Shown: piece after piece, positions 4,555 through 53,291 of the stretch | Position numbering within the stretch: position 1 is the stretch's first letter | How the letters are laid out: the number at the start of each line of letters is the position of its first letter | Source of the DNA: Ilumatobacteraceae bacterium | Lineage (GTDB): Bacteria > Actinomycetota > Acidimicrobiia > Acidimicrobiales > Ilumatobacteraceae | Assembly: GCA_040401975.1 (NCBI GenBank) | Contig: JBBANL010000009.1 | Span: 8,257-72,256 of the forward strand | Reading direction: 5' to 3' | Length of the DNA stretch: 64,000 bases | The notes under the pieces: model-generated | Seen by the model: only the letters and a program-made list of their open reading frames with translations | Database searches by the model: none | Told to the model about the DNA's origin: nothing | Made by a program: the position numbers and the translations under genes

Positions 4555-6178
<1,624 letters not shown>

Positions 6179-6230
6179 CTGAGTCTCCTGTGGTGAAAGG
6201 GGTAGGTGAGTGAGACGCTAGGAAGCCACT

Positions 6231-6258
6231 GTTTCGGAAGTGTTTCGGGCAGGTGAAT
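6231..6258 (-). promoter_or_regulatory. Candidate GlnR/OmpR-type site: three 11-bp-phased direct repeats upstream of amt (4928..6178)
   Basis: Plus strand carries GTTTCG (6231), GTTTCG (6242) and GTGAAT (6253). On the coding strand this reads ATTCAC-n6-GAAAC-n6-GAAAC, 53 nt upstream of the ATG. It resembles the recalled actinobacterial GlnR box gTnAC-n6-GaAAC. Confidence 0.45.
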
Positions 6259-6273
6259 GCACGCACAACGCAG

Positions 6274-6312
6274 AAAACCCGCGCCGGCCACGTCGTTGTG
6301 GCGGCGCGGGTC
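6274..6312 (-). terminator. Intrinsic terminator between the two amt genes
   Basis: Minus strand reads ACCCGCGCCGCCAC-AACGAC-GTGGCCGGCGCGGGT followed by TTTTCTG. That is about a 14-bp GC stem with one bulge, starting 16 nt after the stop of amt (6328..7599). Confidence 0.75.
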
Positions 6313-6327
6313 TCCCGAAGCCAGGTG

Positions 6328-8086
<1,759 letters not shown>

Positions 8087-22371: not shown

Positions 22372-22425
22372 TTCGCCACACCCCTGTCGTACCTTCAACG
22401 GTGAAAGACAGGAGCAGTGATCCAG

Positions 22426-22611
22426 ATGAACGAATGTCCGGAATGTGGCGGCCCATTGGTCGGAAGCGGCGACGACCTCCGGTGCGTCGAGTGCGGGCTG
22501 ACGCGCGACGAGTTCTCCGAGGTCGTCGACGAGGAAGAGTTCTCCGACGGCGACATCGATGACGATTTCGACGACCTCGACGAAGAGGGTTTCGACTCCG
22601 CCGACTGGTAG
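22426..22611 (+). CDS. Mini-protein: four-Cys zinc ribbon plus hyper-acidic tail
   Basis: CPEC-x12-CVEC, then 36 residues of which 19 are Asp/Glu, ending in DW. AGGAG lies 11 nt before ATG 22426 (the track start is GTG 22417). Confidence 0.5.
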   Translation: MNECPECGGPLVGSGDDLRCVECGLTRDEFSEVVDEEEFSDGDIDDDFDDLDEEGFDSADW

Positions 22612-24037: not shown

Positions 24038-25402
24038 ATGCAGTACGTCTCGACGCGCGGAGCGGCGCCCGTGCTCGGTTTTTCCGATGTGGTGCTGGCG
24101 GGCCTGGCAACCGACGGCGGTCTCTATGTTCCCGAGGCATGGCCCCCGGCCCGCGCATCGACCGGCGGCTCGTACGCATCGCTGGCCGCATCGGTGTTCG
24201 AGCCATATCTCGACTCGACCGTCACGCCGGGTGTCATGGCGCGACTGTGCGACGAGGCGTATTCGACGTTCCGGCATCCCGACGTGGTGCCGATGGTCGA
24301 TCTCGAACCGGGGCACCAGCTCATGGAGCTCTTTCACGGGCCGACCCTTGCGTTCAAGGATGTCGCCCTGCAGCTGCTCGGTCGGTTGTTCGATCACATT
24401 CTCACCGAGCGGAACGAAAAGGTCACGATCGTGGGGGCGACGAGCGGCGACACCGGCAGTGCGGCCATCGACGGGGTGAAGAACTGCGCCAGTGTCGACA
24501 TCGTGATTCTGTATCCCAAAGGTCGCGTGAGCGACGTGCAACGTCGCCAGATGACAACCGTCGATTCGCCGAACGTGCGCACCGTGGCAATCGACGGCAC
24601 GTTCGACGACTGCCAGGATCTCGTGAAGGCGATGTTCAACGACGCACCGTTCCGCGAGCGCAACAACCTCTCTGCGGTCAACAGCATCAACTGGGCGCGT
24701 GTGATGGCCCAGGTGGTGTACTACTTCGAGATTGCGCGGCGGGTCGACGGTCCCTTCGATGTCACGGTGCCGACCGGCAACTTCGGAAACGTGCTCAGCG
24801 GGTGGATCGCACAGCAGATGGGCGCGCCGGTGCGCCATCTCGTGGTGGCCTCGAACGAGAACGACATTCTGACGAGGTTCTTCGAGTCGCTCGCCATGAA
24901 CGTGACGGGTGTGCATCCCACGTTGAGCCCCAGCATGGACATCCAGGTGTCGTCGAACTTCGAACGATTGCTGTTCGAGATGAACGGTCGCGACGGAGGG
25001 CTCACGGCGGAGCAACTGAGCGTCTTTCGCGACAAGGGTGTCCTGTCGGTGGAGGCAGACCAGTACCAGCAATGGATCGCCCCGACCTTCCGTGCATCAC
25101 GGGCCACCGACCATGACACGTTGGCGACCATTCGCTCGGTGCACGAGTCGACGGGAATGTTGATCGACCCGCACACGGCTGTCGGTGTCAAGGCGGCCCG
25201 GGAGCATCTCGAACCCGGAGTTCCGATGATCACACTGGCCACGGCGCATCCGGCGAAGTTCCCCGACGCCGTGGAACGTGCCACGGGGGTGAGGCCGTCG
25301 CTGCCGGAGCACCTGGCGGACCTGTTCGACCGCGCCGAGCGGACCACGGACCTGCCGAACGACCTCGCCGCAGTCGAGGCTTTCGTCGAATCACGCCGCT
25401 AG
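24038..25402 (+). CDS. thrC: Threonine synthase
   Basis: 454 aa. The PTLAFKD PLP-lysine motif is present. Confidence 0.95.
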   Translation: MQYVSTRGAAPVLGFSDVVLAGLATDGGLYVPEAWPPARASTGGSYASLAASVFEPYLDSTVTPGVMARLCDEAYSTFRHPDVVPMVDLEPGHQLMELFHGPTLAFKDVALQLLGRLFDHILTERNEKVTIVGATSGDTGSAAIDGVKNCASVDIVILYPKGRVSDVQRRQMTTVDSPNVRTVAIDGTFDDCQDLVKAMFNDAPFRERNNLSAVNSINWARVMAQVVYYFEIARRVDGPFDVTVPTGNFGNVLSGWIAQQMGAPVRHLVVASNENDILTRFFESLAMNVTGVHPTLSPSMDIQVSSNFERLLFEMNGRDGGLTAEQLSVFRDKGVLSVEADQYQQWIAPTFRASRATDHDTLATIRSVHESTGMLIDPHTAVGVKAAREHLEPGVPMITLATAHPAKFPDAVERATGVRPSLPEHLADLFDRAERTTDLPNDLAAVEAFVESRR

Positions 25403-25432
25403 GCAGCCTGACGGGTCAATCAACTGTCGGTC

Positions 25433-25603
25433 TCACTCTGACGAGTCGTCATCGGTGGTCGTCGTCGGTGCCGGTCTGAAACCCCGGAGAAGTTGCGTGA
25501 CGAATTCACGCTTCTCGTCGTCGGACATCGTCCAGTAGGACTTCTCGATCGCGACAACCTTGATTGGCTCGTTGGAGTCTTTGTGTTCGGTGGAATCAGA
25601 CAT
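25433..25603 (-). CDS. 56-aa acidic mini-ORF (below the ORF-track size cut-off)
   Basis: Hand translation: MSDSTEHKDSNEPIKVVAIEKSYWTMSDDEKREFVTQLLRGFRPAPTTTTDDDSSE. Its ATG directly follows the TGA of the upstream phosphatase gene (TGAATG). Confidence 0.4.
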   Translation of the reverse strand: MSDSTEHKDSNEPIKVVAIEKSYWTMSDDEKREFVTQLLRGFRPAPTTTTDDDSSE

Positions 25604-26242
25604 TCAGCGACCGTTGATCGAGCTGATGACCCAGTATGCGTCGAGTGGGTTGCGTGCGAACCACCGCACAACCTCGTCGACCGCCTCACTCATCTCGTCG
25701 TAATTGCCGCCGTTGCGCGCCACCCACCATGCAGCGGCATCGGGCGCATACACGGTCGCCGCGATCGGGCGGGCCTGACGGATCGCGCGAAGCGCCGGAA
25801 GGGAATCCCACCCGCGGGTTCGCAGAATCGCGTAGGTCGCGGATGGTCCGCGGTTGCATCCGACCCAACATGTGACCATGAGGACTGCCCCCGGGGTCTC
25901 TTCGATCTCGCGTGCCTTTTCCGCGATGGCATCGAACCAGCGCGGGTCGCGACGGCCGAGATCGTCGTTGACGCCGATGTGATGAACTCGGATGTTCGAG
26001 TTGGCCTCGATGAATTCCTTCTCGCGGAATTCGAGATGCACCGGCATGTAGTCGGTGATGCCTTCAGCTTCCCAGCGGGCGAGTTGTTCACGTGCGATGT
26101 CGTGCTGTGGCGAGATTCCGCCGCTCATCGCGAGAGTGGGAGTCACGAAGCAGACCTCGCGCCACCAGAACATGGGGTCGAGGGGTCGCTGCGGAAGGTC
26201 GAGGGAATGAAGGGGAATGTCATTTATTGTCATGTTGACCAT
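25604..26242 (-). CDS. Dual-specificity/PTP-like phosphatase (CX5R P-loop)
   Basis: Trimmed to ATG 26242 (MVNMTINDIPL; alternative 26233). VLMVTCWVGCNRGPS contains C-x5-R, with an upstream GVNDDLGR candidate acid loop. Confidence 0.55.
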   Translation of the reverse strand: MVNMTINDIPLHSLDLPQRPLDPMFWWREVCFVTPTLAMSGGISPQHDIAREQLARWEAEGITDYMPVHLEFREKEFIEANSNIRVHHIGVNDDLGRRDPRWFDAIAEKAREIEETPGAVLMVTCWVGCNRGPSATYAILRTRGWDSLPALRAIRQARPIAATVYAPDAAAWWVARNGGNYDEMSEAVDEVVRWFARNPLDAYWVISSINGR

Positions 26243-26280
26243 TATGCCAAGGGGGTGTGTCGGGATTCCCGGAGCAGGCG

Positions 26281-26775
26281 TCAGCGGCACCACGGCGGTG
26301 ACGCCACCACGAAATCGAGAGTTGCAGAACAGGGGCGCAGCCCGCGGGTTTGCAATTCGGCCCAGATGTCGGCCAGTTCGCCGAGTCGAAGCGCGTCGCA
26401 GATGCGCGCGGCCTCGCCGAACAGGGTGATCGACGACCGGAACTTTCTCGCGTCGATGCCGCCGAGCACCTTCTTCAGTTCGTCGTACGCCGGCTCGTTC
26501 TGTGGCAGGTGCGAGAGAACGAGGCGACAGCACTCGACGTAGCGGTCGCGGAGGGTGGGATGTGTCAGATAATCGACCACTTCACTCATCGACCTGACTC
26601 CGAACTCGATTGCCATCTCGGAACTGCCGAGCCCCGAGATTTGAGGGAAGACGTACCACATCCAATGAGTCCGTTTGCGACCGACACGAAGCTCTGCAAG
26701 CGCATCGGGAAAGGTGTCACGCTGGTGCGTCGGGTGATTGCCCTGCTGGGTCAGAAGAAATCGTTCAACGGTCAT
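26281..26775 (-). CDS. DUF1810 family protein
   Basis: Trimmed to ATG 26775 (MTVERFLLTQ...), overlapping the upstream stop by 4 nt. GRKRTHWMWYVFPQISGLG and KFRSSITLF segments match the DUF1810 pattern as recalled. Confidence 0.65.
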   Translation of the reverse strand: MTVERFLLTQQGNHPTHQRDTFPDALAELRVGRKRTHWMWYVFPQISGLGSSEMAIEFGVRSMSEVVDYLTHPTLRDRYVECCRLVLSHLPQNEPAYDELKKVLGGIDARKFRSSITLFGEAARICDALRLGELADIWAELQTRGLRPCSATLDFVVASPPWCR

Positions 26776-27443
26776 TGTCCCTCCTCCGGAAACATCTCGT
26801 TGACGGCCTTTTCGAAACGTTCGAAGAGATCGCGGGTGCCGGGTGGGTACCCCTTCTTGTCGAACGCGGCGAGAAGTCCGCGGTACCACATGCGTTGGTG
26901 GTCGTATCCGACGTTGAACTTGGCCCACACGGTGTGTTCTTCTCCCGGCGATTTGCGCAGATCTGCCACCGTGTTTTCTGCGTTGTAGGTCTTGTCCGCC
27001 AGGGAGACCAACAGCGATTCGTCAGTAGCGGGCTTCGACGCAATCTTGTCGATGTAGGGCTTCTTCCGCGCTTCCCACCAGTGCTCGGCTTTCTGCTCAG
27101 CGGTCCAGTTCTCCTCGCGGGCCTGTTCCTTGTATTCCTGCTTTTTGGCGAACGTCGTGTCGGTGCAGCCCCACACGATGTCTGTGATGGCCGGGCCGAC
27201 TCGGAACTTGAGGATGTTGCGTTTGGTGGGAGTGTCCTCCAACAAGTCGTGCAAGAGTGCGCCGATGGTTTGTCTCTTGGATCCGCCTGCCTCGATCACG
27301 AGCGACGCGACTCCGAGAAGGTGGCCGAGATAGGGGATGTTGCTGCCTTTGCGAACCTCGTTTTCGTGACCTTTACCGGCGATGCGAATCGCTCGATAGA
27401 AGTTCTCGGTTGGTTTCCACAGGGGTTCTGTGTTGTGTGTCAT
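26772..27443 (-). CDS. HD-domain protein of the RelA/SpoT-hydrolase type (small-alarmone-hydrolase-like)
   Basis: 223 aa. YLGHLLGVASLV...ALLHDLLEDT and SLADKTYNAENT resemble the SpoT hydrolase HD motifs. Strong AAGGAG Shine-Dalgarno before ATG 27443. Confidence 0.65.
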   Translation of the reverse strand: MTHNTEPLWKPTENFYRAIRIAGKGHENEVRKGSNIPYLGHLLGVASLVIEAGGSKRQTIGALLHDLLEDTPTKRNILKFRVGPAITDIVWGCTDTTFAKKQEYKEQAREENWTAEQKAEHWWEARKKPYIDKIASKPATDESLLVSLADKTYNAENTVADLRKSPGEEHTVWAKFNVGYDHQRMWYRGLLAAFDKKGYPPGTRDLFERFEKAVNEMFPEEGQ

Positions 27444-27497
27444 GTGTGGCTCCTTTCTGAAGAGATCCGAAGAAAGAGTCGTGCCACGCAGCGAAGG

Positions 27498-27662
27498 TCA
27501 CGCGCCGCCACTCCCGGCGGCGCCGAGCACCGCCGCGATGATGATGACCCATCCGATGATCACGATCGGGAACACGATGGTGAGTGCGGCCAGAGCGAAG
27601 CACCAGAACGTGATCGCAAAAGTCCAGCCGATGCATCCGCCGCCGAATCGACTCGGTGTCAT
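27498..27662 (-). CDS. 54-aa predicted two-helix membrane mini-ORF (not in track)
   Basis: Hand translation: MTPSRFGGGCIGWTFAITFWCFALAALTIVFPIVIIGWVIIIAAVLGAAGSGGA. The Shine-Dalgarno is weak. Confidence 0.3.
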   Translation of the reverse strand: MTPSRFGGGCIGWTFAITFWCFALAALTIVFPIVIIGWVIIIAAVLGAAGSGGA

Positions 27663-27716
27663 GCGGGGAATCTCTTCATGTCTTTCACACTTTCAGCGTA
27701 CGGAACGGGTGTGTCG

Positions 27717-28151
27717 TCACGTGGTGGGGCAATTGTCGCTCACGAAGTTGTTGAAACGGGTTGATGCATCTACGACACCTTCTCGTTGGTTGATTGCGTC
27801 GAATTCCCTTCGGAGTTCCTCGTTCTTTGCAATTTCCACGAGGTCATAGTCGTGTGCGTCGAACAGGGCGTTTGTGTCGATCACGGATGAGACCAGAAGC
27901 GCCACATCGTCCTTGATCTCGTCGGGGCTCGTATCGCGCAGCTGCCGGGCATACGTTGCCGCCTTTGTCCACGTGTCTCGCATGATGTCCGGATCCGTGA
28001 TGGCAGCCGGATCCTCTCCGTGGGGCCCTGCAGCCGCGGATTCCATGCTTGCGGCAACGGAGCAGAATTCGGTGTAGTCGGCCGACGGAGCACCGGACGA
28101 GCAGGCAACCAGAGCCGGCACCAGCGCAATGAGAACGGCGAGCCGTCTCAC
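27717..28151 (-). CDS. Putative lipoprotein
   Basis: VRRLAVLIALVPALVAC lipobox. The start is set at GTG 28151, which overlaps the TGA of the upstream mini-ORF (GTGA). The track start is 28175. Confidence 0.6.
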   Translation of the reverse strand: MRRLAVLIALVPALVACSSGAPSADYTEFCSVAASMESAAAGPHGEDPAAITDPDIMRDTWTKAATYARQLRDTSPDEIKDDVALLVSSVIDTNALFDAHDYDLVEIAKNEELRREFDAINQREGVVDASTRFNNFVSDNCPTT

Positions 28152-28294
28152 TTCATGCCCAGGATTTTTCCCCACTTCTGTCGCCGTCCGGCCCGGGTGA
28201 GGGGAATGCCGGTCTTGCGCGAGATCTTGCGCTTGGCGGCGGTGATGCCGAGTGCGCGCTTCCAGGAGAATGTGAGTCCGGGTCCGAGTTTCAT
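28148..28294 (-). CDS. 48-aa highly basic mini-ORF (not in track)
   Basis: Hand translation: MKLGPGLTFSWKRALGITAAKRKISRKTGIPLTRAGRRQKWGKILGMK. Its stop is coupled to the lipoprotein GTG. Confidence 0.35.
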   Translation of the reverse strand: MKLGPGLTFSWKRALGITAAKRKISRKTGIPLTRAGRRQKWGKILGMK

Positions 28295-28350
28295 GGCCTG
28301 ACCGTATCAGTCGGTGCTTCGGTCGGTGCGGTGTCTGCGCCTGCGGCGGG

Positions 28351-28378
28351 TTCTGATCAGAAGCGATAATGGTAGAGT
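28351..28378. promoter_or_regulatory. Perfect 12-bp palindrome TTCTGATCAGAA overlapping a candidate promoter (TTCTGA-16 nt-TAGAGT)
   Basis: Read directly. It lies in the divergent region between the mini-ORFs at 28294 (minus) and 28412 (plus). GATAAT is also present at 28365. Confidence 0.35.
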
Positions 28379-28411
28379 GTACCCTAAACAGATGCGAGAA
28401 GGTGAACTCAC

Positions 28412-28621
28412 GTGGGAATTCTGAAGTGGTACGTCGTGTACCGGGTGGCGACCCGGGGGCGCAGGAGACGAAAGGCCGAAGCGCGGGCCAGGGAGACCCT
28501 CCAGACGGTCTTCGAGATCGCCGAGGACGACTCTGACGAGGCGCTCTTTGAGTTCTGTGACGAGTGCGGCGAGATTCTCGGCGACCATCTCATCGATGGA
28601 GAAGAGCTGGTGTGTCCCTGA
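28412..28621 (+). CDS. 69-aa ORF with a basic N-terminus, acidic centre and three C-terminal Cys
   Basis: GTG start preceded by GAAGGTGA. VGILKWYVVYRVATRGRRRRKAEARA...FCDECGEILGDHLIDGEELVCP. Coding status is uncertain. Confidence 0.35.
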   Translation: MGILKWYVVYRVATRGRRRRKAEARARETLQTVFEIAEDDSDEALFEFCDECGEILGDHLIDGEELVCP

Positions 28622-28629
28622 AACCCCTT

Positions 28630-28691
28630 GCAGTCAACAAGTTGTTTCACGCAATTGACTGCGAATCGCAGAAAATTGAAATTTTTATAAT
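28630..28691. promoter_or_regulatory. Nested palindromes plus a consensus TATAAT in an AT-rich spacer
   Basis: GCAGTCAA (28630)/TTGACTGC (28655), CAACAAGTTG (28635) and CTGCGAATCGCAG (28659), with TATAAT at 28686. A hand count of 28621..28720 gives about 43% GC. Confidence 0.4.
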
Positions 28692-28722
28692 GCCGCGAAG
28701 TACCCAACCAAAGGAGTCCCGA

Positions 28723-29385
28723 ATGACCCGAAATCTGCCCGAATACGTGATGAACGACAGGTGGGCGCGCCTCAGAGCCCTCTCGTTCGAGATCGACTTC
28801 CACTCCGAAATCGACCAACGACTGAATCGCGCCCGGAGCCCGATCGACAGTTTGATGTTTCCTTTCCACATGGCGATCGGTGCGGCCGGACTCGTGCGGC
28901 CATTCGACTGGACCACATGGGAAGCGCCGATGTTGACCATCGAGATGGTGCCGAACCTGAACGACGAGATGGCACGCAAGCACATGACCCGCATCGTGCG
29001 CGCCGACCGTTTCAACGAGGGGGTCTTCGATTCGTATGCACGCTCCGGGGTTCTGACCGCGCTCGCACGTCATCTTTACGAATTGCGACAGACGGAGAAC
29101 GGGTGGCCGACCGACTTTGCGGTGAACCCGGACGGTTCGGTGGAATCCGGCATCGCATTGGTGGCAGGTCGCGGTGTGATTCGTGGGCTCACCAACGGCC
29201 GTCGTTATCGGTGTCCCGAGTGCAGAGGCGGCTGGAGTCTCGAGTGCGAATTGCGGGGCGGTCATGTCGTGAGGGTGTGCTCGCGGGATTGGCATTTTCT
29301 CGCCGACCGCCGGGAGGTTCGCGTGTTGAATCCGAGTCCGCTGCAGCAGGTGTTCAGGAAGCCGCGGCCCAGCGTGCGATCGTGA
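28723..29385 (+). CDS. DUF6508-like domain protein with a C-terminal Cys-cluster (zinc-ribbon-like) extension
   Basis: ATG 28723 lies 7 nt after AAAGGAG. FDWTTWEAP...KHMTRIVRADRFNEGVFDSYARSGVLTALARHLYEL matches the recalled DUF6508 pattern. The C-terminus is RYRCPECRGGWSLECELRGGHVVRVC. Confidence 0.5.
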   Translation: MTRNLPEYVMNDRWARLRALSFEIDFHSEIDQRLNRARSPIDSLMFPFHMAIGAAGLVRPFDWTTWEAPMLTIEMVPNLNDEMARKHMTRIVRADRFNEGVFDSYARSGVLTALARHLYELRQTENGWPTDFAVNPDGSVESGIALVAGRGVIRGLTNGRRYRCPECRGGWSLECELRGGHVVRVCSRDWHFLADRREVRVLNPSPLQQVFRKPRPSVRS

Positions 29386-30253
29386 GGCGGTGCCACGCGA
29401 CGACATCGTCGATTGTGTAGCGACCCCAGGTGTAGCCGCCCGCGAGACCGAAAATCGCCGGGGTGTCACCGATGAAGGTGCGGACCAGACGTTCGCGGAT
29501 CCGCAGGTCGCTCTCTGAGACTCCGCTGTTGCGGACATCGACACCCGCGTTGTAGGCGATGAAGTCGAACTTCTCCAGCGTCGATGCGTAGTCGAGCGCC
29601 TTCTCCACCGCCTTGCGGTAGCCGTCGGGGGACACTATGTCGAGTCGGCTGTCGCCTTCGGGTTGCCATGTGTCGAATGCCGACACCGTGACGTCGACCT
29701 GCACGACGTCGCTGTCGAACTTGCGGCTGATGATGTCCCATGTTCCGCCTCCCGCGTGTGCGTCGAGGTCGAGGCAGAGAATCCGACCGGCTCCGAGTTG
29801 TCGTGCCGCATGGATCGCAGCGGCAAGACCGTTGAACGTGCAGTACCCGGCACCGCGATCGTGTGCTGCATGGTGCATGCCCGAACTGAGGCTGCCCGAG
29901 CAGCGGTTGTTGGTGAGCGCATCGTGGGTCGCCGCAATCATTCCCGCGACGTGAGCACGTGCCATGACGTAGATGCCGGGGTCCCACGAGAACGAGCTCG
30001 TCTGCGCGAGCTGTCGCGGCTTTCCTGTTCTGACAGCCGTCACGTATTTCTCGGAATGAATCCATGCAATGACCTCCTCGGCCAGTTCGTAGAGAACAGA
30101 CGGATCGGAGATCGCGACGGGGGAGATGGGGTCATCAATGAGCGACTGTGCGATGTCGATCGCCTTGCGCGTGGTGTCGAATTCGTAGTTGCTGGCGCCG
30201 TAATCGGCATTGTGGAAGATGCGAAGTATGGAACGGACAAGTTGGTTCTGCAT
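29354..30253 (-). CDS. Small histone-deacetylase-family (arginase/deacetylase fold) amidohydrolase
   Basis: Trimmed to ATG 30253 (MQNQLVRSIL...) behind GAAGGAGA. SGMHHA...GYCTFNG, DLDAHAGGGT, YNAGVD and GGY motifs correspond to the HDAC metal and catalytic residues. Confidence 0.7.
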   Translation of the reverse strand: MQNQLVRSILRIFHNADYGASNYEFDTTRKAIDIAQSLIDDPISPVAISDPSVLYELAEEVIAWIHSEKYVTAVRTGKPRQLAQTSSFSWDPGIYVMARAHVAGMIAATHDALTNNRCSGSLSSGMHHAAHDRGAGYCTFNGLAAAIHAARQLGAGRILCLDLDAHAGGGTWDIISRKFDSDVVQVDVTVSAFDTWQPEGDSRLDIVSPDGYRKAVEKALDYASTLEKFDFIAYNAGVDVRNSGVSESDLRIRERLVRTFIGDTPAIFGLAGGYTWGRYTIDDVVAWHRLTIARWAAAS

Positions 30254-30358
30254 GGGTCTCCTTCTGGTTGGGGGGAAGCAAGTGTGACAAGTCCCTGTGT
30301 CAATATTTGTAGAAGCGACACTAAATAGGGTCGGCACTGAGACGTCCGAAGTGGCGCT

Positions 30359-30384
30359 CGTGGACGGCGGGAGATTCGTCCACG
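30359..30384 (+). promoter_or_regulatory. Hairpin in the rho 5' leader (CGTGGACG-10 nt-CGTCCACG)
   Basis: Perfect 8-bp inverted repeat read directly, about 170 nt upstream of the rho ATG. Confidence 0.35.
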
Positions 30385-30552
30385 GTCGTTGCCAAATCGG
30401 GCGATCGGGGCTAAGGTGAGGGTCGCTCGGTTGTCCGAGTTCTCCCCGCCCTCGTTGAGGGGGGTCGAGATTCCCCAATGCGTTCAGCGCTCCGGTGCAT
30501 GGCGCACAGCCCCTCATTCGGTCACGAAAAGACCGCAGGAAAGCAGGAAATC

Positions 30553-32277
30553 ATGGCTGCAGAAGCCCTTGAGAAGTCCGCACTCGAGTCCAAGGACAAG
30601 GACCAGTTGATGGCAATCGCCGATGCACTCGGCGTGAAGGCCCCCGCACGCGCCACGAAAGCGGTGCTGGTCGAGAAGATTCTCGAAAAGACCGGAGTCG
30701 GTGCGGCACCGGCGAAGGCAAAGCCCGCAAAGCGCGACGAGAACGTCGACGCCGAAAAGGCCGACGACGCCGGCGCCGATGAGTCTTCCCAGAAGAAGTC
30801 GAGCGAGCCGATCGTGTACCTCGGCGACGACGGTGAGCCGCTCGCGGAGTGGGAGATCGAACTCGCACAGCACGAGGGTCGACTCGACAAGTTGAAGACG
30901 GCCGGCGGCGGTCAGCGCAACGATCGCGGCGACCGCGGACCACGCCAACAGGGCCAGGGTCAGAACCAGCAGCGCCAGCAGGGTCAGCGCCAGCAAGGTC
31001 AGCAAGGTCAGCAAGGTGGCGACTGGGACGAAGGCGGACGCAACAGCCGTCGCCGTCGCCGTCGCGGACGCAACGGTCGCGACGAAGGTCCGCAGGGCGA
31101 CGATCGCTACGACAGCGGCGACCAGAGCGAGCCGGTCAACATGGATCCCGTCAAGGTCGAGGGCTATCTCGACCTTCGCGATGAGGGATACGGCTTCCTT
31201 CGCGTCGGCGGGTACCAGCCGACTCGCAACGACGCCTACATCCCCGTGAAACTCACGCGTCAGTTCGGTCTGCGCAAGGGTGACCACGTCACCGGAATGT
31301 CGCGACCTGCCGGTCGCAACGAGAAGAACCCGGCGATGCTCGAGATCCACACGGTGAACGGCCAGGACCCGGAGAAGTCGAAGAACCGCCCGCGTTTCGA
31401 GGATCTCACGCCGCTGTTCCCCGACCACAAGTTGCGCATGGAAGACCCGCGCGACCCCACCAACATGACCGCGCGCATCATCGACCTGATCGCGCCCATC
31501 GGCAAGGGTCAGCGCGGTCTCATCGTGTCGCCGCCGAAGGCGGGCAAGACCACCGTGATGAAGACCATCGCGTCGTCGATCGAGAAGAACAATCCCGAGG
31601 TGAAGTTGATCGTGTTGTTGATCGACGAACGCCCCGAGGAAGTCACCGACATGCGTCGCACGGTTCGCGGCGAGGTCATTGCGTCGACGTTCGATCGTCC
31701 GTCCGATGAGCACACGCACATCGCCGAGATGACCATCGAGAAAGCCAAGCGCATGGTCGAGATGGGCGAGGACGTCGTCATCATCCTCGACGGAATCACG
31801 CGACTGTCACGCGCCTACAACCTCGCTGCTCCCGCGAGCGGCCGCATCATGTCGGGTGGTATCGACGCCGGTGCGCTGTACCCGCCGAAGAAATTCTTCG
31901 GTGCGGCGCGCAACGTGGAAGAAGGCGGGTCGCTCACGATTCTTGCGACCGCTCTCGTCGAGACCAACAGCCGCATGGACGAGGCCATCTTCGAAGAGTT
32001 CAAGGGAACAGGCAACATGGAACTGCGCCTCGACCGACGCATTGCCGAGCGCCGCGTGTTCCCGGCCATCGACGTCGATGCCTCGAGCACGCGCCACGAG
32101 GAACTGCTCTTCGAGCGCAAGCAACTGCAACTGGTGTGGAAGCTGCGCCGGGTGCTGAGCGGGCTTGCCCAGGACGGCAACCCCGCTCCGGGCCTGGAAA
32201 TGCTGATGGACCGCCTGAAGACCTTCGGCACCAACGACGAGTTCCTGGCCGAGATCGCAAAGACGCCGGGCGCCTAG
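30553..32277 (+). CDS. rho: Transcription termination factor Rho with an actinobacterial-type N-terminal insertion
   Basis: Trimmed to ATG 30553 ([28 protein letters not shown]). [12 protein letters not shown] Walker A motif. Q/G/R-rich insert. Confidence 0.95.
30991..31017 (+). repeat. Three perfect tandem copies of CAGCAAGGT inside rho
   Basis: Read directly. It encodes part of [23 protein letters not shown]. Confidence 0.9.
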
Positions 32278-44795: not shown

Positions 44796-45277
44796 ACTCG
44801 ACACCGTCGCCCCTCGCAATGGCCGCTCAGGGTCTCGCCCCGGAGGTCACGGTGTCACGCGACATCATCAAGCGCGGTCTCATGGTGGCCCCTGCGGTGA
44901 TGGTCATCGGGGGCATCATCTGGGGTGTCAACGGTGCCTGGTCGTCCGGGCTCGGATTGGCGATTGTCCTTGTGAACTTTGGGCTTGCGGCAGCGCTCAT
45001 CTCGTGGGCCGCCCCCATTTCGCTCGCGCTGATGATGGGTGTCAGCCTCTTCGGCTACCTCATCCGGCTCGGTCTCATTGCGCTGGCGGTGTTCCTCGTG
45101 CGTGACGTGACGTGGGTGTCTCTCCCGGCCCTCGGGATCACCCTCATCGTCTCCCATCTCGGGCTCCTGTTCTGGGAGATGAAGTTCATCGCCGCCTCAC
45201 TTGCATTTCCGGGACTGCGTCCCAATAAGACAGAATGGGTGCCGTCCGGCGCCGCTGAGAAACCCCTGAAGGACTGA
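44792..45277 (+). CDS. atpI: ATP synthase protein I-like membrane protein
   Basis: ATG 44792 overlaps the upstream stop (ATGA). About four hydrophobic helices. It precedes atpB. Confidence 0.6.
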   Translation: MNSTPSPLAMAAQGLAPEVTVSRDIIKRGLMVAPAVMVIGGIIWGVNGAWSSGLGLAIVLVNFGLAAALISWAAPISLALMMGVSLFGYLIRLGLIALAVFLVRDVTWVSLPALGITLIVSHLGLLFWEMKFIAASLAFPGLRPNKTEWVPSGAAEKPLKD

Positions 45278-52613: not shown

Positions 52614-53291
52614 ATGTCTGCAGCCCTTGTCCACCTCTACATCCTCCTCGACCGCTCAGGGTCGATGGCATCCATCGCCCGCGACGTGATCGGCGGGTAC
52701 AACACCTTCATCCGCGAACAACGCAGGGCCGGGTCCGATGTGCGCGTCACCCTGGTGCAGTTCGACTCGGCCGACCGTCAGGACATCATCGCTGCCGGCG
52801 TGCCCATCGACGAACTGGTCGAGCTCACAGAGGAGACGTTCATCCCGCGTGGAGGAACACCGCTTCTCGACGCCACGGGACTGCTCATCGCCCGTGCCCG
52901 CACCAAGCAGGAGATGCGCGTCCGGAACTCGCTTCCGGCCGAGGACATCGTCTTCGTCACCATCACCGACGGAGCCGAGAACGAGAGCACCGAGTACACC
53001 CTTCAACAGGTCAGGCAGTTGATCGAAGAGTGCGAGGCGCAGGGTTGGACCTTCGTGTTCCTCTCTGCGGCACTCGACGCCTACGGCGATGCAACCCGCA
53101 TGGGCATGAAGAGCGGCAACATCCAGGCCTTCTCCGCAAGCGGTCACGGCGCCAATCTGGCGTTCGGCAGCCTGTCGATGAGCGTGGAGAAGATGCGCGC
53201 GATGAAGCGCTCCGGCGCATGGAAGCGCGACATTGACTTCTTCGAGGAGAAGACCGCAGAAGCGGAGCGTCGCAAGAACGACAATCCGTGA
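52614..53291 (+). CDS. Stand-alone von Willebrand factor A domain protein
   Basis: 225 aa. LLDRSGSM (DxSxS MIDAS) and ITDGAEN motifs. No signal peptide is evident. Confidence 0.7.
   Translation: MSAALVHLYILLDRSGSMASIARDVIGGYNTFIREQRRAGSDVRVTLVQFDSADRQDIIAAGVPIDELVELTEETFIPRGGTPLLDATGLLIARARTKQEMRVRNSLPAEDIVFVTITDGAENESTEYTLQQVRQLIEECEAQGWTFVFLSAALDAYGDATRMGMKSGNIQAFSASGHGANLAFGSLSMSVEKMRAMKRSGAWKRDIDFFEEKTAEAERRKNDNP

Follow-up and report, generated by a model that had tools for sequence, protein, structure and literature searches.

A mosaic of intact hydrolases in a variable thrC-rho island of a freshwater Ilumatobacteraceae genome

We analyzed 64,000 nucleotides of contig JBBANL010000009.1 (assembly GCA_040401975.1, positions 8,257 to 72,256; hereafter "the window", with positions counted from its first letter), from a bacterium whose lineage is assigned by sequence to freshwater Ilumatobacteraceae, acIV Acidimicrobiia. 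Between thrC, which ends at 25402, and rho, which starts at ~30478, lies an island encoding a small alarmone hydrolase with an HD domain, a DUF1810 protein, a Cys-phosphatase, an acidic product of 56 amino acids (aa) and an HDAC-like deacylase. The gene string in this island is a lineage-specific mosaic, not a conserved four-gene unit. The locus consists of reduced or re-assorted parts of a predicted network centered on ADP-ribosylglycohydrolase (ARG), grafted onto a resident alarmone-hydrolase operon. Our preferred explanation, held with middling confidence, is that a mosaic of hydrolytic eraser enzymes occupies a fast-turning island. The phosphatase, DUF1810, small protein and HDAC-like enzyme would form one functional group derived from a predicted ADP-ribose/nucleotide-processing conflict network, and the HD hydrolase would be a resident, cooperating or not with the phosphatase group. 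The five genes are as follows.

26772-27443, minus strand: HD_4 small alarmone hydrolase (RelH/Mesh1-type), 223 aa; from the open reading frame (ORF) list, Pfam and PDB matches
26281-26775, minus strand: DUF1810 protein, 164 aa, Acidimicrobiia-specific subfamily; from Pfam, fold match and subfamily alignment
25604-26242, minus strand: CX5R Cys-phosphatase, rhodanese-phosphatase/dual-specificity phosphatase fold; from the P-loop C125-x5-R131, the model and Foldseek
25433-25603, minus strand: acidic small ORF, 56 aa; from the ORF list, G+C content at third codon positions (GC3) and phmmer homologues
29354-30253, minus strand: short HDAC-like metal-dependent deacylase, 299 aa; from Pfam PF00850 and PDB alignments

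An initial annotation had described the first four as a tightly packed minus-strand operon. The ORF list and the sequence bear out the four packed ORFs at these coordinates, the ATGA (a 4-nt overlap) shared by the HD stop and the DUF1810 start, and the TGAATG junction at which the phosphatase stop directly meets the start of the 56-aa ORF. The 38-nt gap that it gave between DUF1810 and the phosphatase is correct for the first phosphatase ATG, but the true start is probably the ATG at 26233, because 34 homologues are 209 aa long and begin with MT; this start would yield a 209 aa protein and a 47-nt gap. The four genes are real, but the proposed operon is only the far end of a longer run of co-directional genes, in which a small basic ORF (basic48), a lipoprotein gene and a gene for a hydrophobic peptide (TM54) come before HD. 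This minus-strand run probably begins with basic48.

The comparison set (designated by L numbers) comprised 80 species-level loci from genomes, 80 loci from metagenomes and another 16 contigs, and genes of the phosphatase region were grouped by homology clustering, not by GC3-based calling. In L091-L096 the site holds a bare core of rho, a basic peptide, the lipoprotein, HD, an acidic protein (x) and thrC, with no phosphatase, DUF1810 or HDAC. Additions to this core occur in L008, L009, L086 and L088, which gain HDAC at the rho end and the phosphatase, or DUF1810 and the phosphatase, at the thrC end. The core together with HDAC, DUF1810 and phosphatase is found in L001, L009, L013, L086, L088, L101 and L111. 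L090 has DUF1810 and the phosphatase without HD; in L002 and L004 the phosphatase is kept, and HD, x and DUF1810 are all missing. The lipoprotein lies upstream of HD in all HD-carrying thrC-rho loci, including those that lack the phosphatase. The x family (167-192 aa, strongly acidic, no Pfam match) comes next after HD in every HD-bearing relative except L015 and L005. In these two and in the window the x gene is gone and HD abuts DUF1810, with an identical ATGA junction in L015. Thus, the HD stop overlaps the DUF1810 start because the x gene was lost. Where present, examples of x were located as follows.

x protein: L086, 2796-3371; L088, 5397-5975; L091, 3087-3620; L093, 7692-8225; L095, 1564-2067

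Identities to the closest relative, L001, are discordant: 91% for thrC, 90% for rho, 98% for basic48 and 88% for the phosphatase, compared with 55% for HD and 64% for DUF1810. We therefore conclude that the inner cassette is subject to replacement or fast evolution within a stable surrounding frame.

These patterns bear on the original proposal that two phosphohydrolases bracket a domain of unknown function in one conserved pathway. All four genes would then serve the stepwise breakdown of an alarmone-like nucleotide, with HD removing the 3′-pyrophosphate, the phosphatase removing further phosphates, and DUF1810 and the small protein assisting. The tight packing with its 4-nt overlap is consistent with such a pathway, as are the intact active sites of both enzymes and the joint presence of HD, DUF1810 and phosphatase at the site in L001, L005, L009, L013, L015, L086, L088, L101 and L111. 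The co-occurrence that the initial annotation suggested looking for in other genomes thus exists at the thrC-rho site (e.g., L001, L009 and L013), but it is limited to one synteny block in one sublineage. Moreover, HD occurs without the phosphatase in L091-L096, the phosphatase occurs without HD in 73 of the 80 species-level loci, the sister genomes L002 and L004 lost HD and DUF1810 and retained the phosphatase, and, except in L015 and L005, it is x and not DUF1810 that comes after HD in the relatives. The steady partner of the phosphatase is instead the HDAC-like gene. We consider a single four-gene pathway improbable.

Alternatively, the site could be a shared insertion hot spot whose genes have no common function, adjacency and overlap having arisen from deletions in a compact genome. 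Island content indeed differs among close relatives, the HD-DUF1810 overlap is due to loss of the x gene, and GC content is 0.57-0.58 over 26500-28000 versus 0.63-0.65 outside. A repeat search found no flanking direct or inverted repeats marking a mobile element. Chance accumulation fits poorly, however, with the fact that each gene of the DUF1810 subfamily that was found immediately precedes a phosphatase homologue, even in the distant L067 and L068, or with HDAC-phosphatase linkage at many unrelated genomic sites. In addition, HD_4 turns up a second time, independently, in the distant L031 system, beside ARPP-1, phosphatase, vWA, TY-Chap, HDAC and NrtR, and homologues of the 56-aa ORF adjoin phosphatase homologues. 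A hot spot without shared function is, in our judgment, rather unlikely.

The HDAC-like gene has the Shine-Dalgarno sequence GAAGGAG and in the window lies 3 kb upstream of the phosphatase. Its product matches PF00850 (E 2e-20, 74 bits versus a cutoff of 27.9), and the catalytic set H127, H128, D164, H166, D239 and Y274 is entirely invariant. In 23 of the 24 informative loci, which had phosphatase identity of 42% or more and sufficient flanking sequence, the HDAC-like gene lies within 5 kb of the phosphatase, often directly downstream of it. About a fifth of the 80 HDAC-like metagenome loci have a Cys-phosphatase next door, which belongs either to the family in the window or to a different, 160-aa family with the motif HCxxGxxRS; others carry ARPP-1, a glycohydrolase, vWA or a helicase. 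As the HCxxGxxRS phosphatase also adjoins the HDAC-like gene, the deacylase pairs with Cys-phosphatases of two families. The ~160-aa HCxxGxxRS protein was seen directly upstream of the short HDAC-like gene in L110 (373-855), and similarly in L106-L108 and L132. A further protein, c18 (331-338 aa, no Pfam family), is encoded directly upstream of the phosphatase where HDAC is directly downstream (L016 6914-7930, L084 2904-3899, and similarly L018-L028).

The phosphatase founds its own family with a dual-specificity phosphatase fold. As first reported, its P-loop is intact (C125-W-V-G-C-N-R131), and C125, G128, N130, R131 and D93 do not vary among 24 homologues; from its position, D93 may be the general acid. 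The DSPc score of 19.2 bits is below the cutoff of 33.5, which some relatives pass. The AlphaFold model has a predicted local distance difference test score (pLDDT) of 92, and dual-specificity phosphatases are its top Foldseek matches in the PDB (probability 1.0). Of 1.84 billion cluster representatives, 1048 belong to the family at E<=1e-3, and some members are fused to NUDIX, EVE or HU domains. Close relatives were found in 136 of 185,579 species genomes, all of them metagenome-assembled genomes, nearly all labelled Acidimicrobiia or Actinomycetota (some evidently mislabelled). No homologues were found in IMG/VR or in plasmids. Phage LR756511.1, an uncultured 595-kb phage (L181), encodes at 5959-6465 a truncated, 168 aa member with the signature G-V-N-R-G-P-S ... 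A-R-P-I-A-G-I. Its neighbors are an ATP-dependent DNA/RNA ligase, a ParB-like protein, a zinc ribbon and an AAA_33 P-loop kinase, a layout reminiscent of nucleic-acid end healing and sealing.

The neighborhoods of the phosphatase-HDAC pair in other genomes suggest what this pair might do. There, among others in further Acidimicrobiia, it occurs with a NUDIX-NrtR regulator, an AAA+ ATPase, vWA, TY-Chap1/YbjN, ARPP-1 (PF20208) and a NERD-UvrD helicase, and these neighborhoods also hold an ADP-ribosylglycohydrolase fused to DSPc/Tc-R-P domains. The glycohydrolase is beside phosphatase homologues in L012, L081-L085 and L061, and a Nudix- or WYL-type regulator is found in L011, L012, L027, L031, L033, L034, L037, L081 and L084. 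ARG-centered systems with parts of this kind are predicted countermeasures against ADP-ribosylation by viruses (Iyer, Burroughs, Anand, de Souza and Aravind, 2022, Viruses 14:1977, section 3.8; PMC9503650). Their hallmarks are variable accreted modules and rapid divergence, and an alarmone-type HD phosphatase is described as an alternative or extra phosphatase in them (PMC9503650). The contexts and fusions of the phosphatase suggest that its substrates may be ribose, nucleotides or nucleic-acid ends. The earlier suggestion of nucleotide-derived substrates is accordingly plausible, given the neighboring glycohydrolase, NrtR-type Nudix and ARPP-1 genes and the NUDIX, EVE and HU fusions, and the CX5R protein does not cluster with ordinary protein phosphatases among unrelated neighbors.

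Several results weigh against a conflict-related eraser group in the window itself. The 64-kb sequence gave no tblastn match to ADP-ribosylglycohydrolase and contains no ARPP-1, TY-Chap or helicase and no Nudix or WYL regulator; the lone match to the NrtR of L081 is a marginal 46-aa fragment at 44867-45004 (E 0.019), far from the locus. No vWA, TY-Chap, SseB or ARPP is present at the locus, and the only vWA homologue in the window (52614-53291, plus strand) is solitary and 25 kb from the island. We tried the possibility that the phosphatase is the domain family fused to the glycohydrolase and rejected it, as hhalign gave a probability of 7% and aligned the P-loop only. Many distant phosphatase homologues (32-38% identity) are solitary or in unrelated contexts, and most of the HDAC-like metagenome loci are without any marker gene. 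The nine island proteins have no match among the PADLOC-DB 2.0 defence models. The string may be co-transcribed; promoter and terminator scans were uninformative on this point. Finally, HD could be a housekeeping hydrolase that merely shares a flexible site. Because the window is without the defining parts and its phosphatase is of a different family, the locus is not a member of the ARG-centered systems by their defining features. As a separate observation, the solitary vWA protein is 52-61% identical to vWA proteins of phosphatase-HDAC pairs elsewhere, and its gene adjoins glpX and ATP synthase genes.

Another explanation is ordinary physiology. HD would then be a housekeeping orphan alarmone hydrolase, and the phosphatase and HDAC would erase the cell's own protein phosphorylation and lysine acetylation. 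The genes are chromosomal, have no PADLOC match and none is on plasmids; most structures that match the phosphatase are protein phosphatases; and HDAC-fold enzymes are classically lysine deacylases. Small alarmone hydrolases of the orphan kind are also known to have housekeeping or promiscuous functions (PMC9765508). Ordinary physiology is hard to square with the recurrence of the phosphatase-HDAC pair alongside NrtR-Nudix, ADP-ribosylglycohydrolase, ARPP-1, NERD helicase and vWA, and with the NUDIX, EVE and HU fusions in the phosphatase family. The presence/absence pattern and the discordant identities between close relatives would likewise be unusual for core regulators. Thus, we regard purely physiological roles as unlikely. 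We also set aside a metabolic role in which phosphatase and deacetylase would work on a phospho/acetyl sugar, much as in the mycothiol steps MshA2/MshB, as the conserved neighbors point elsewhere.

Judged by its motifs, the HD protein is an intact RelH-type, hydrolase-only small alarmone hydrolase. It matches PF13328 (HD_4; E 2e-13, 50.7 bits versus a cutoff of 27.2), has 223 aa and HD domains only, without a synthetase domain, and its gene is preceded by a strong Shine-Dalgarno sequence, GAAAGGAG. All the RelA/SpoT-type hydrolase residues noticed initially are present: H26, R31, K32, H41, H65-D66, E69-D70 and D150-K151-x-x-N154 are invariant in 14 homologues, and R31-K32 is the expected base-binding pair. 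The closest solved structures are RelH of Leptospira levettii (7QOE) and of Corynebacterium glutamicum (7QOC/7QOD); the best PDB matches have E-values of 1.6e-20 and 3.5e-16, and the C-terminal helical part is also covered. A PHROGs search with HD gave generic phosphohydrolase matches only.

The initial annotation had also raised an antitoxin or anti-defence hydrolase module. In one version of this idea, HD would give immunity against a toxSAS or a (p)ppApp-making effector and its neighbors would be accessory. Small alarmone hydrolases serve as toxSAS antitoxins (PMC7229694; bioRxiv 10.1101/2021.04.30.441581), and the x protein after HD in relatives is small and acidic. Yet, as stated from the outset, no synthetase adjoins HD: none is among the annotated neighbors, a crude motif scan of all frames of the 64-kb window found no EVQIRT-like synthetase motif, and none was seen beside HD in L086-L096. 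The absence of PADLOC matches, and of the phosphatase family from IMG/VR and plasmids, argues against the broader module as well. We find an antitoxin role for HD highly improbable.

The DUF1810 protein matches PF08837 (E 2e-34, 118.7 bits). Its model has a pLDDT of 96 and a sole fold match, to Rv1873 of Mycobacterium tuberculosis (2JEK; template modeling (TM) scores 0.72/0.83). The structure of Rv1873 is solved, and we know of no function assigned to it. A literature search for DUF1810, DUF6508 and their Pfam accessions returned no relevant match. The subfamily in the window is 164-170 aa long, with an N-terminal insert that contains His and a C-terminal C...SPPWC tail. Generic DUF1810 genes are solitary in Blastococcus and Massilia. 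Some DUF1810 relatives (L015 7254-7922; P0146, which is L090, 401-1009) have an N-terminal four-Cys zinc ribbon that the copy in the window is without.

The acidic 56-aa ORF probably encodes a genuine small protein associated with the phosphatase, as judged from three sequences. Its GC3 is 0.72 in frame versus 0.45-0.50 in the other two same-strand frames; one antisense frame over it has a GC3 of 0.73, as expected where third positions coincide. Using phmmer, we identified two 55-aa homologues, in L031 (5284-5117, E 2.5e-5) and L037 (4271-4104, E 4.5e-3), both between ARPP-1 and the phosphatase homologue. They share the motif K-V-x-x-I-x-x-S-Y-W ... E-E-K-x-E-F-V ... L-R. The substitution pattern between the L031 and L037 copies is only mildly codon-like. 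A metagenome pattern scan found no close relatives, and in the closest relatives the gap between the phosphatase and thrC is too short for the ORF. The idea that it is a remnant of the acidic x protein was rejected, as the two have no similarity.

The island also contains the following genes.

27498-27662, minus strand: TM54, a hydrophobic, probably membrane, peptide, 54 aa; from the ORF list and conservation
27717-28175, minus strand: putative lipoprotein, 152 aa, signal sequence with a Cys lipobox; conserved upstream of HD
28148-28294, minus strand: basic48, a very basic small ORF, 48 aa (MKLGPGLTFSWKRALGITAAKRKISRKTGIPLTRAGRRQKWGKILGMK); from conservation
28412-29385, plus strand: Znr69 (69 aa, 28412-28621) and a DUF6508 protein (to 29385; start uncertain); from Pfam, DUF6508 E 3e-10

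TM54 is conserved in L001, L002, L004, L013, L015, L090 and L101. basic48 has no Pfam match and is always directly upstream of the lipoprotein; with 98% identity in L001 and 74-83% in more distant loci, it is far better conserved than its neighbors. The Znr69-DUF6508 pair is kept in L001, L002, L004, L013, L015, L101 and L111, and DUF6508 recurs near phosphatase homologues at unrelated sites in L021 and L025. In the window the DUF6508 and HDAC genes are convergent and their stops overlap. Long plus-strand ORFs over the region are shadow ORFs without homology support, and an Rfam search of 24500-31500 gave no match. In the island variant of L086/L088, a 528-aa protein without a Pfam match is encoded between rho and the HDAC gene (L088 1330-2916). 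Outside the island, between lysA and hom (22417-22611, plus strand), lies the gene of a zinc-ribbon protein of 64 aa whose tail is very acidic, and related loci keep it at this position.

In the preferred explanation of a mosaic of eraser enzymes, the island would combine two modules. The resident one would consist of the small basic peptide, the lipoprotein, the membrane peptide and the RelH-type hydrolase, with x lost in the window. The recruited one would consist of the phosphatase with its dual-specificity fold, the DUF1810 accessory, the 56-aa protein and, at the other end of the island, the HDAC-like deacylase. The phosphatase may strip a terminal phosphate from a ribose or a nucleic-acid end, for example from a breakdown product of ADP-ribose, and the HDAC-like enzyme may take off an acyl group. 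HD would cut a 3′-pyrophosphate such as that of (p)ppGpp or (p)ppApp. The phosphatase might have DUF1810 and the 56-aa protein as subunits for binding or specificity. The set may act in conflicts with phages or toxins.

A bolder version would make the whole set an undescribed multi-eraser module, in which a phosphatase guided by DUF1810 and the 56-aa protein, together with the HDAC-fold deacylase and HD, reverses ADP-ribosyl, pyrophosphoryl and acyl marks placed by phages or toxins on host proteins or RNA. We put this forward as a tentative idea that is probably wrong in its full form. If true, it would provide a first function for DUF1810 and add an HDAC-fold enzyme to the systems that reverse ADP-ribosylation. 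The ARG-centered systems themselves are computational predictions, and we know of none proven by experiment.

The locus and its relatives offer a compact set of intact enzymes and a natural gain/loss series in abundant freshwater acIV Actinobacteria. The strict pairing of the DUF1810 and phosphatase genes predicts a physical or functional partnership, and the recurrent pairing of a Cys-phosphatase with a short HDAC-like deacylase is unmentioned in the text of PMC9503650. These two pairings, DUF1810-phosphatase and phosphatase-HDAC, can be tested, and they, rather than any demonstrated new mechanism, give the locus its value. If the eraser explanation is right, hosts would have a wider chemistry with which to counter the modifying enzymes of phages or toxins; if not, the locus remains a clear case of cassette turnover at a fixed chromosomal site.

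Each protein combines features of known proteins with distinctive ones. Like RelH/Mesh1, the HD protein has a single HD_4 domain, a length of ~200-225 aa and every hydrolase motif. It differs in being encoded inside a lipoprotein/small-peptide string of a variable island, and the HD genes of its relatives differ in that an uncharacterized acidic protein comes next. In contrast to toxSAS paired with a small alarmone hydrolase, it is without an adjacent small alarmone synthetase toxin. The DUF1810 protein shares with Rv1873 (2JEK) the all-helical fold (TM 0.72-0.83), 33% identity and the invariant family residues, and its subfamily adds the N-terminal His insert and the two-Cys C-terminal tail. 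Its coupling to the phosphatase sets this subfamily apart from generic, solitary DUF1810 genes. The phosphatase has a fold in common with VH1/VHR, DUSP14/18, PTPMT1, Tk-PTP and the capping-enzyme RNA triphosphatase (Foldseek probability 1.0, target TM 0.6-0.77), and shares with dual-specificity phosphatases the CX5R P-loop and an Asp ~32 residues before the Cys. However, it is only 13-20% identical to them, carries the family signature G-[VC]-N-R-G-P-S ... R-A-I-R-x-A-R-P-I-A and has an extra C-terminal helical region (residues 166-210). The deacylase shares PF00850 and the full catalytic set (HH, D-x-H, D and GGY) with short bacterial HDAC-like deacylases (9GKV/9GKY, 9RJE and 9GZ5); its type is ~300 aa long and is genomically paired with Cys-phosphatases of two families.

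As a whole, the locus is closest in kind to the ARG-centered systems. The neighborhoods of its relatives share with them the glycohydrolase-rhodanese-phosphatase fusion, the Nudix-winged helix-turn-helix regulator (NrtR), vWA, TY-Chap1, ARPP-1 and a helicase/nuclease. The HDAC-like partner and DUF1810 are unmentioned in the text of PMC9503650, and the phosphatase in the window is separate from the glycohydrolase-fused family. Variable accreted modules and rapid divergence are also seen at the locus in the window, and coupled phosphatases are present there, in the form of a phosphatase with the rhodanese-phosphatase fold and an alarmone-type HD. The locus is a variant of this computationally predicted kind of system.

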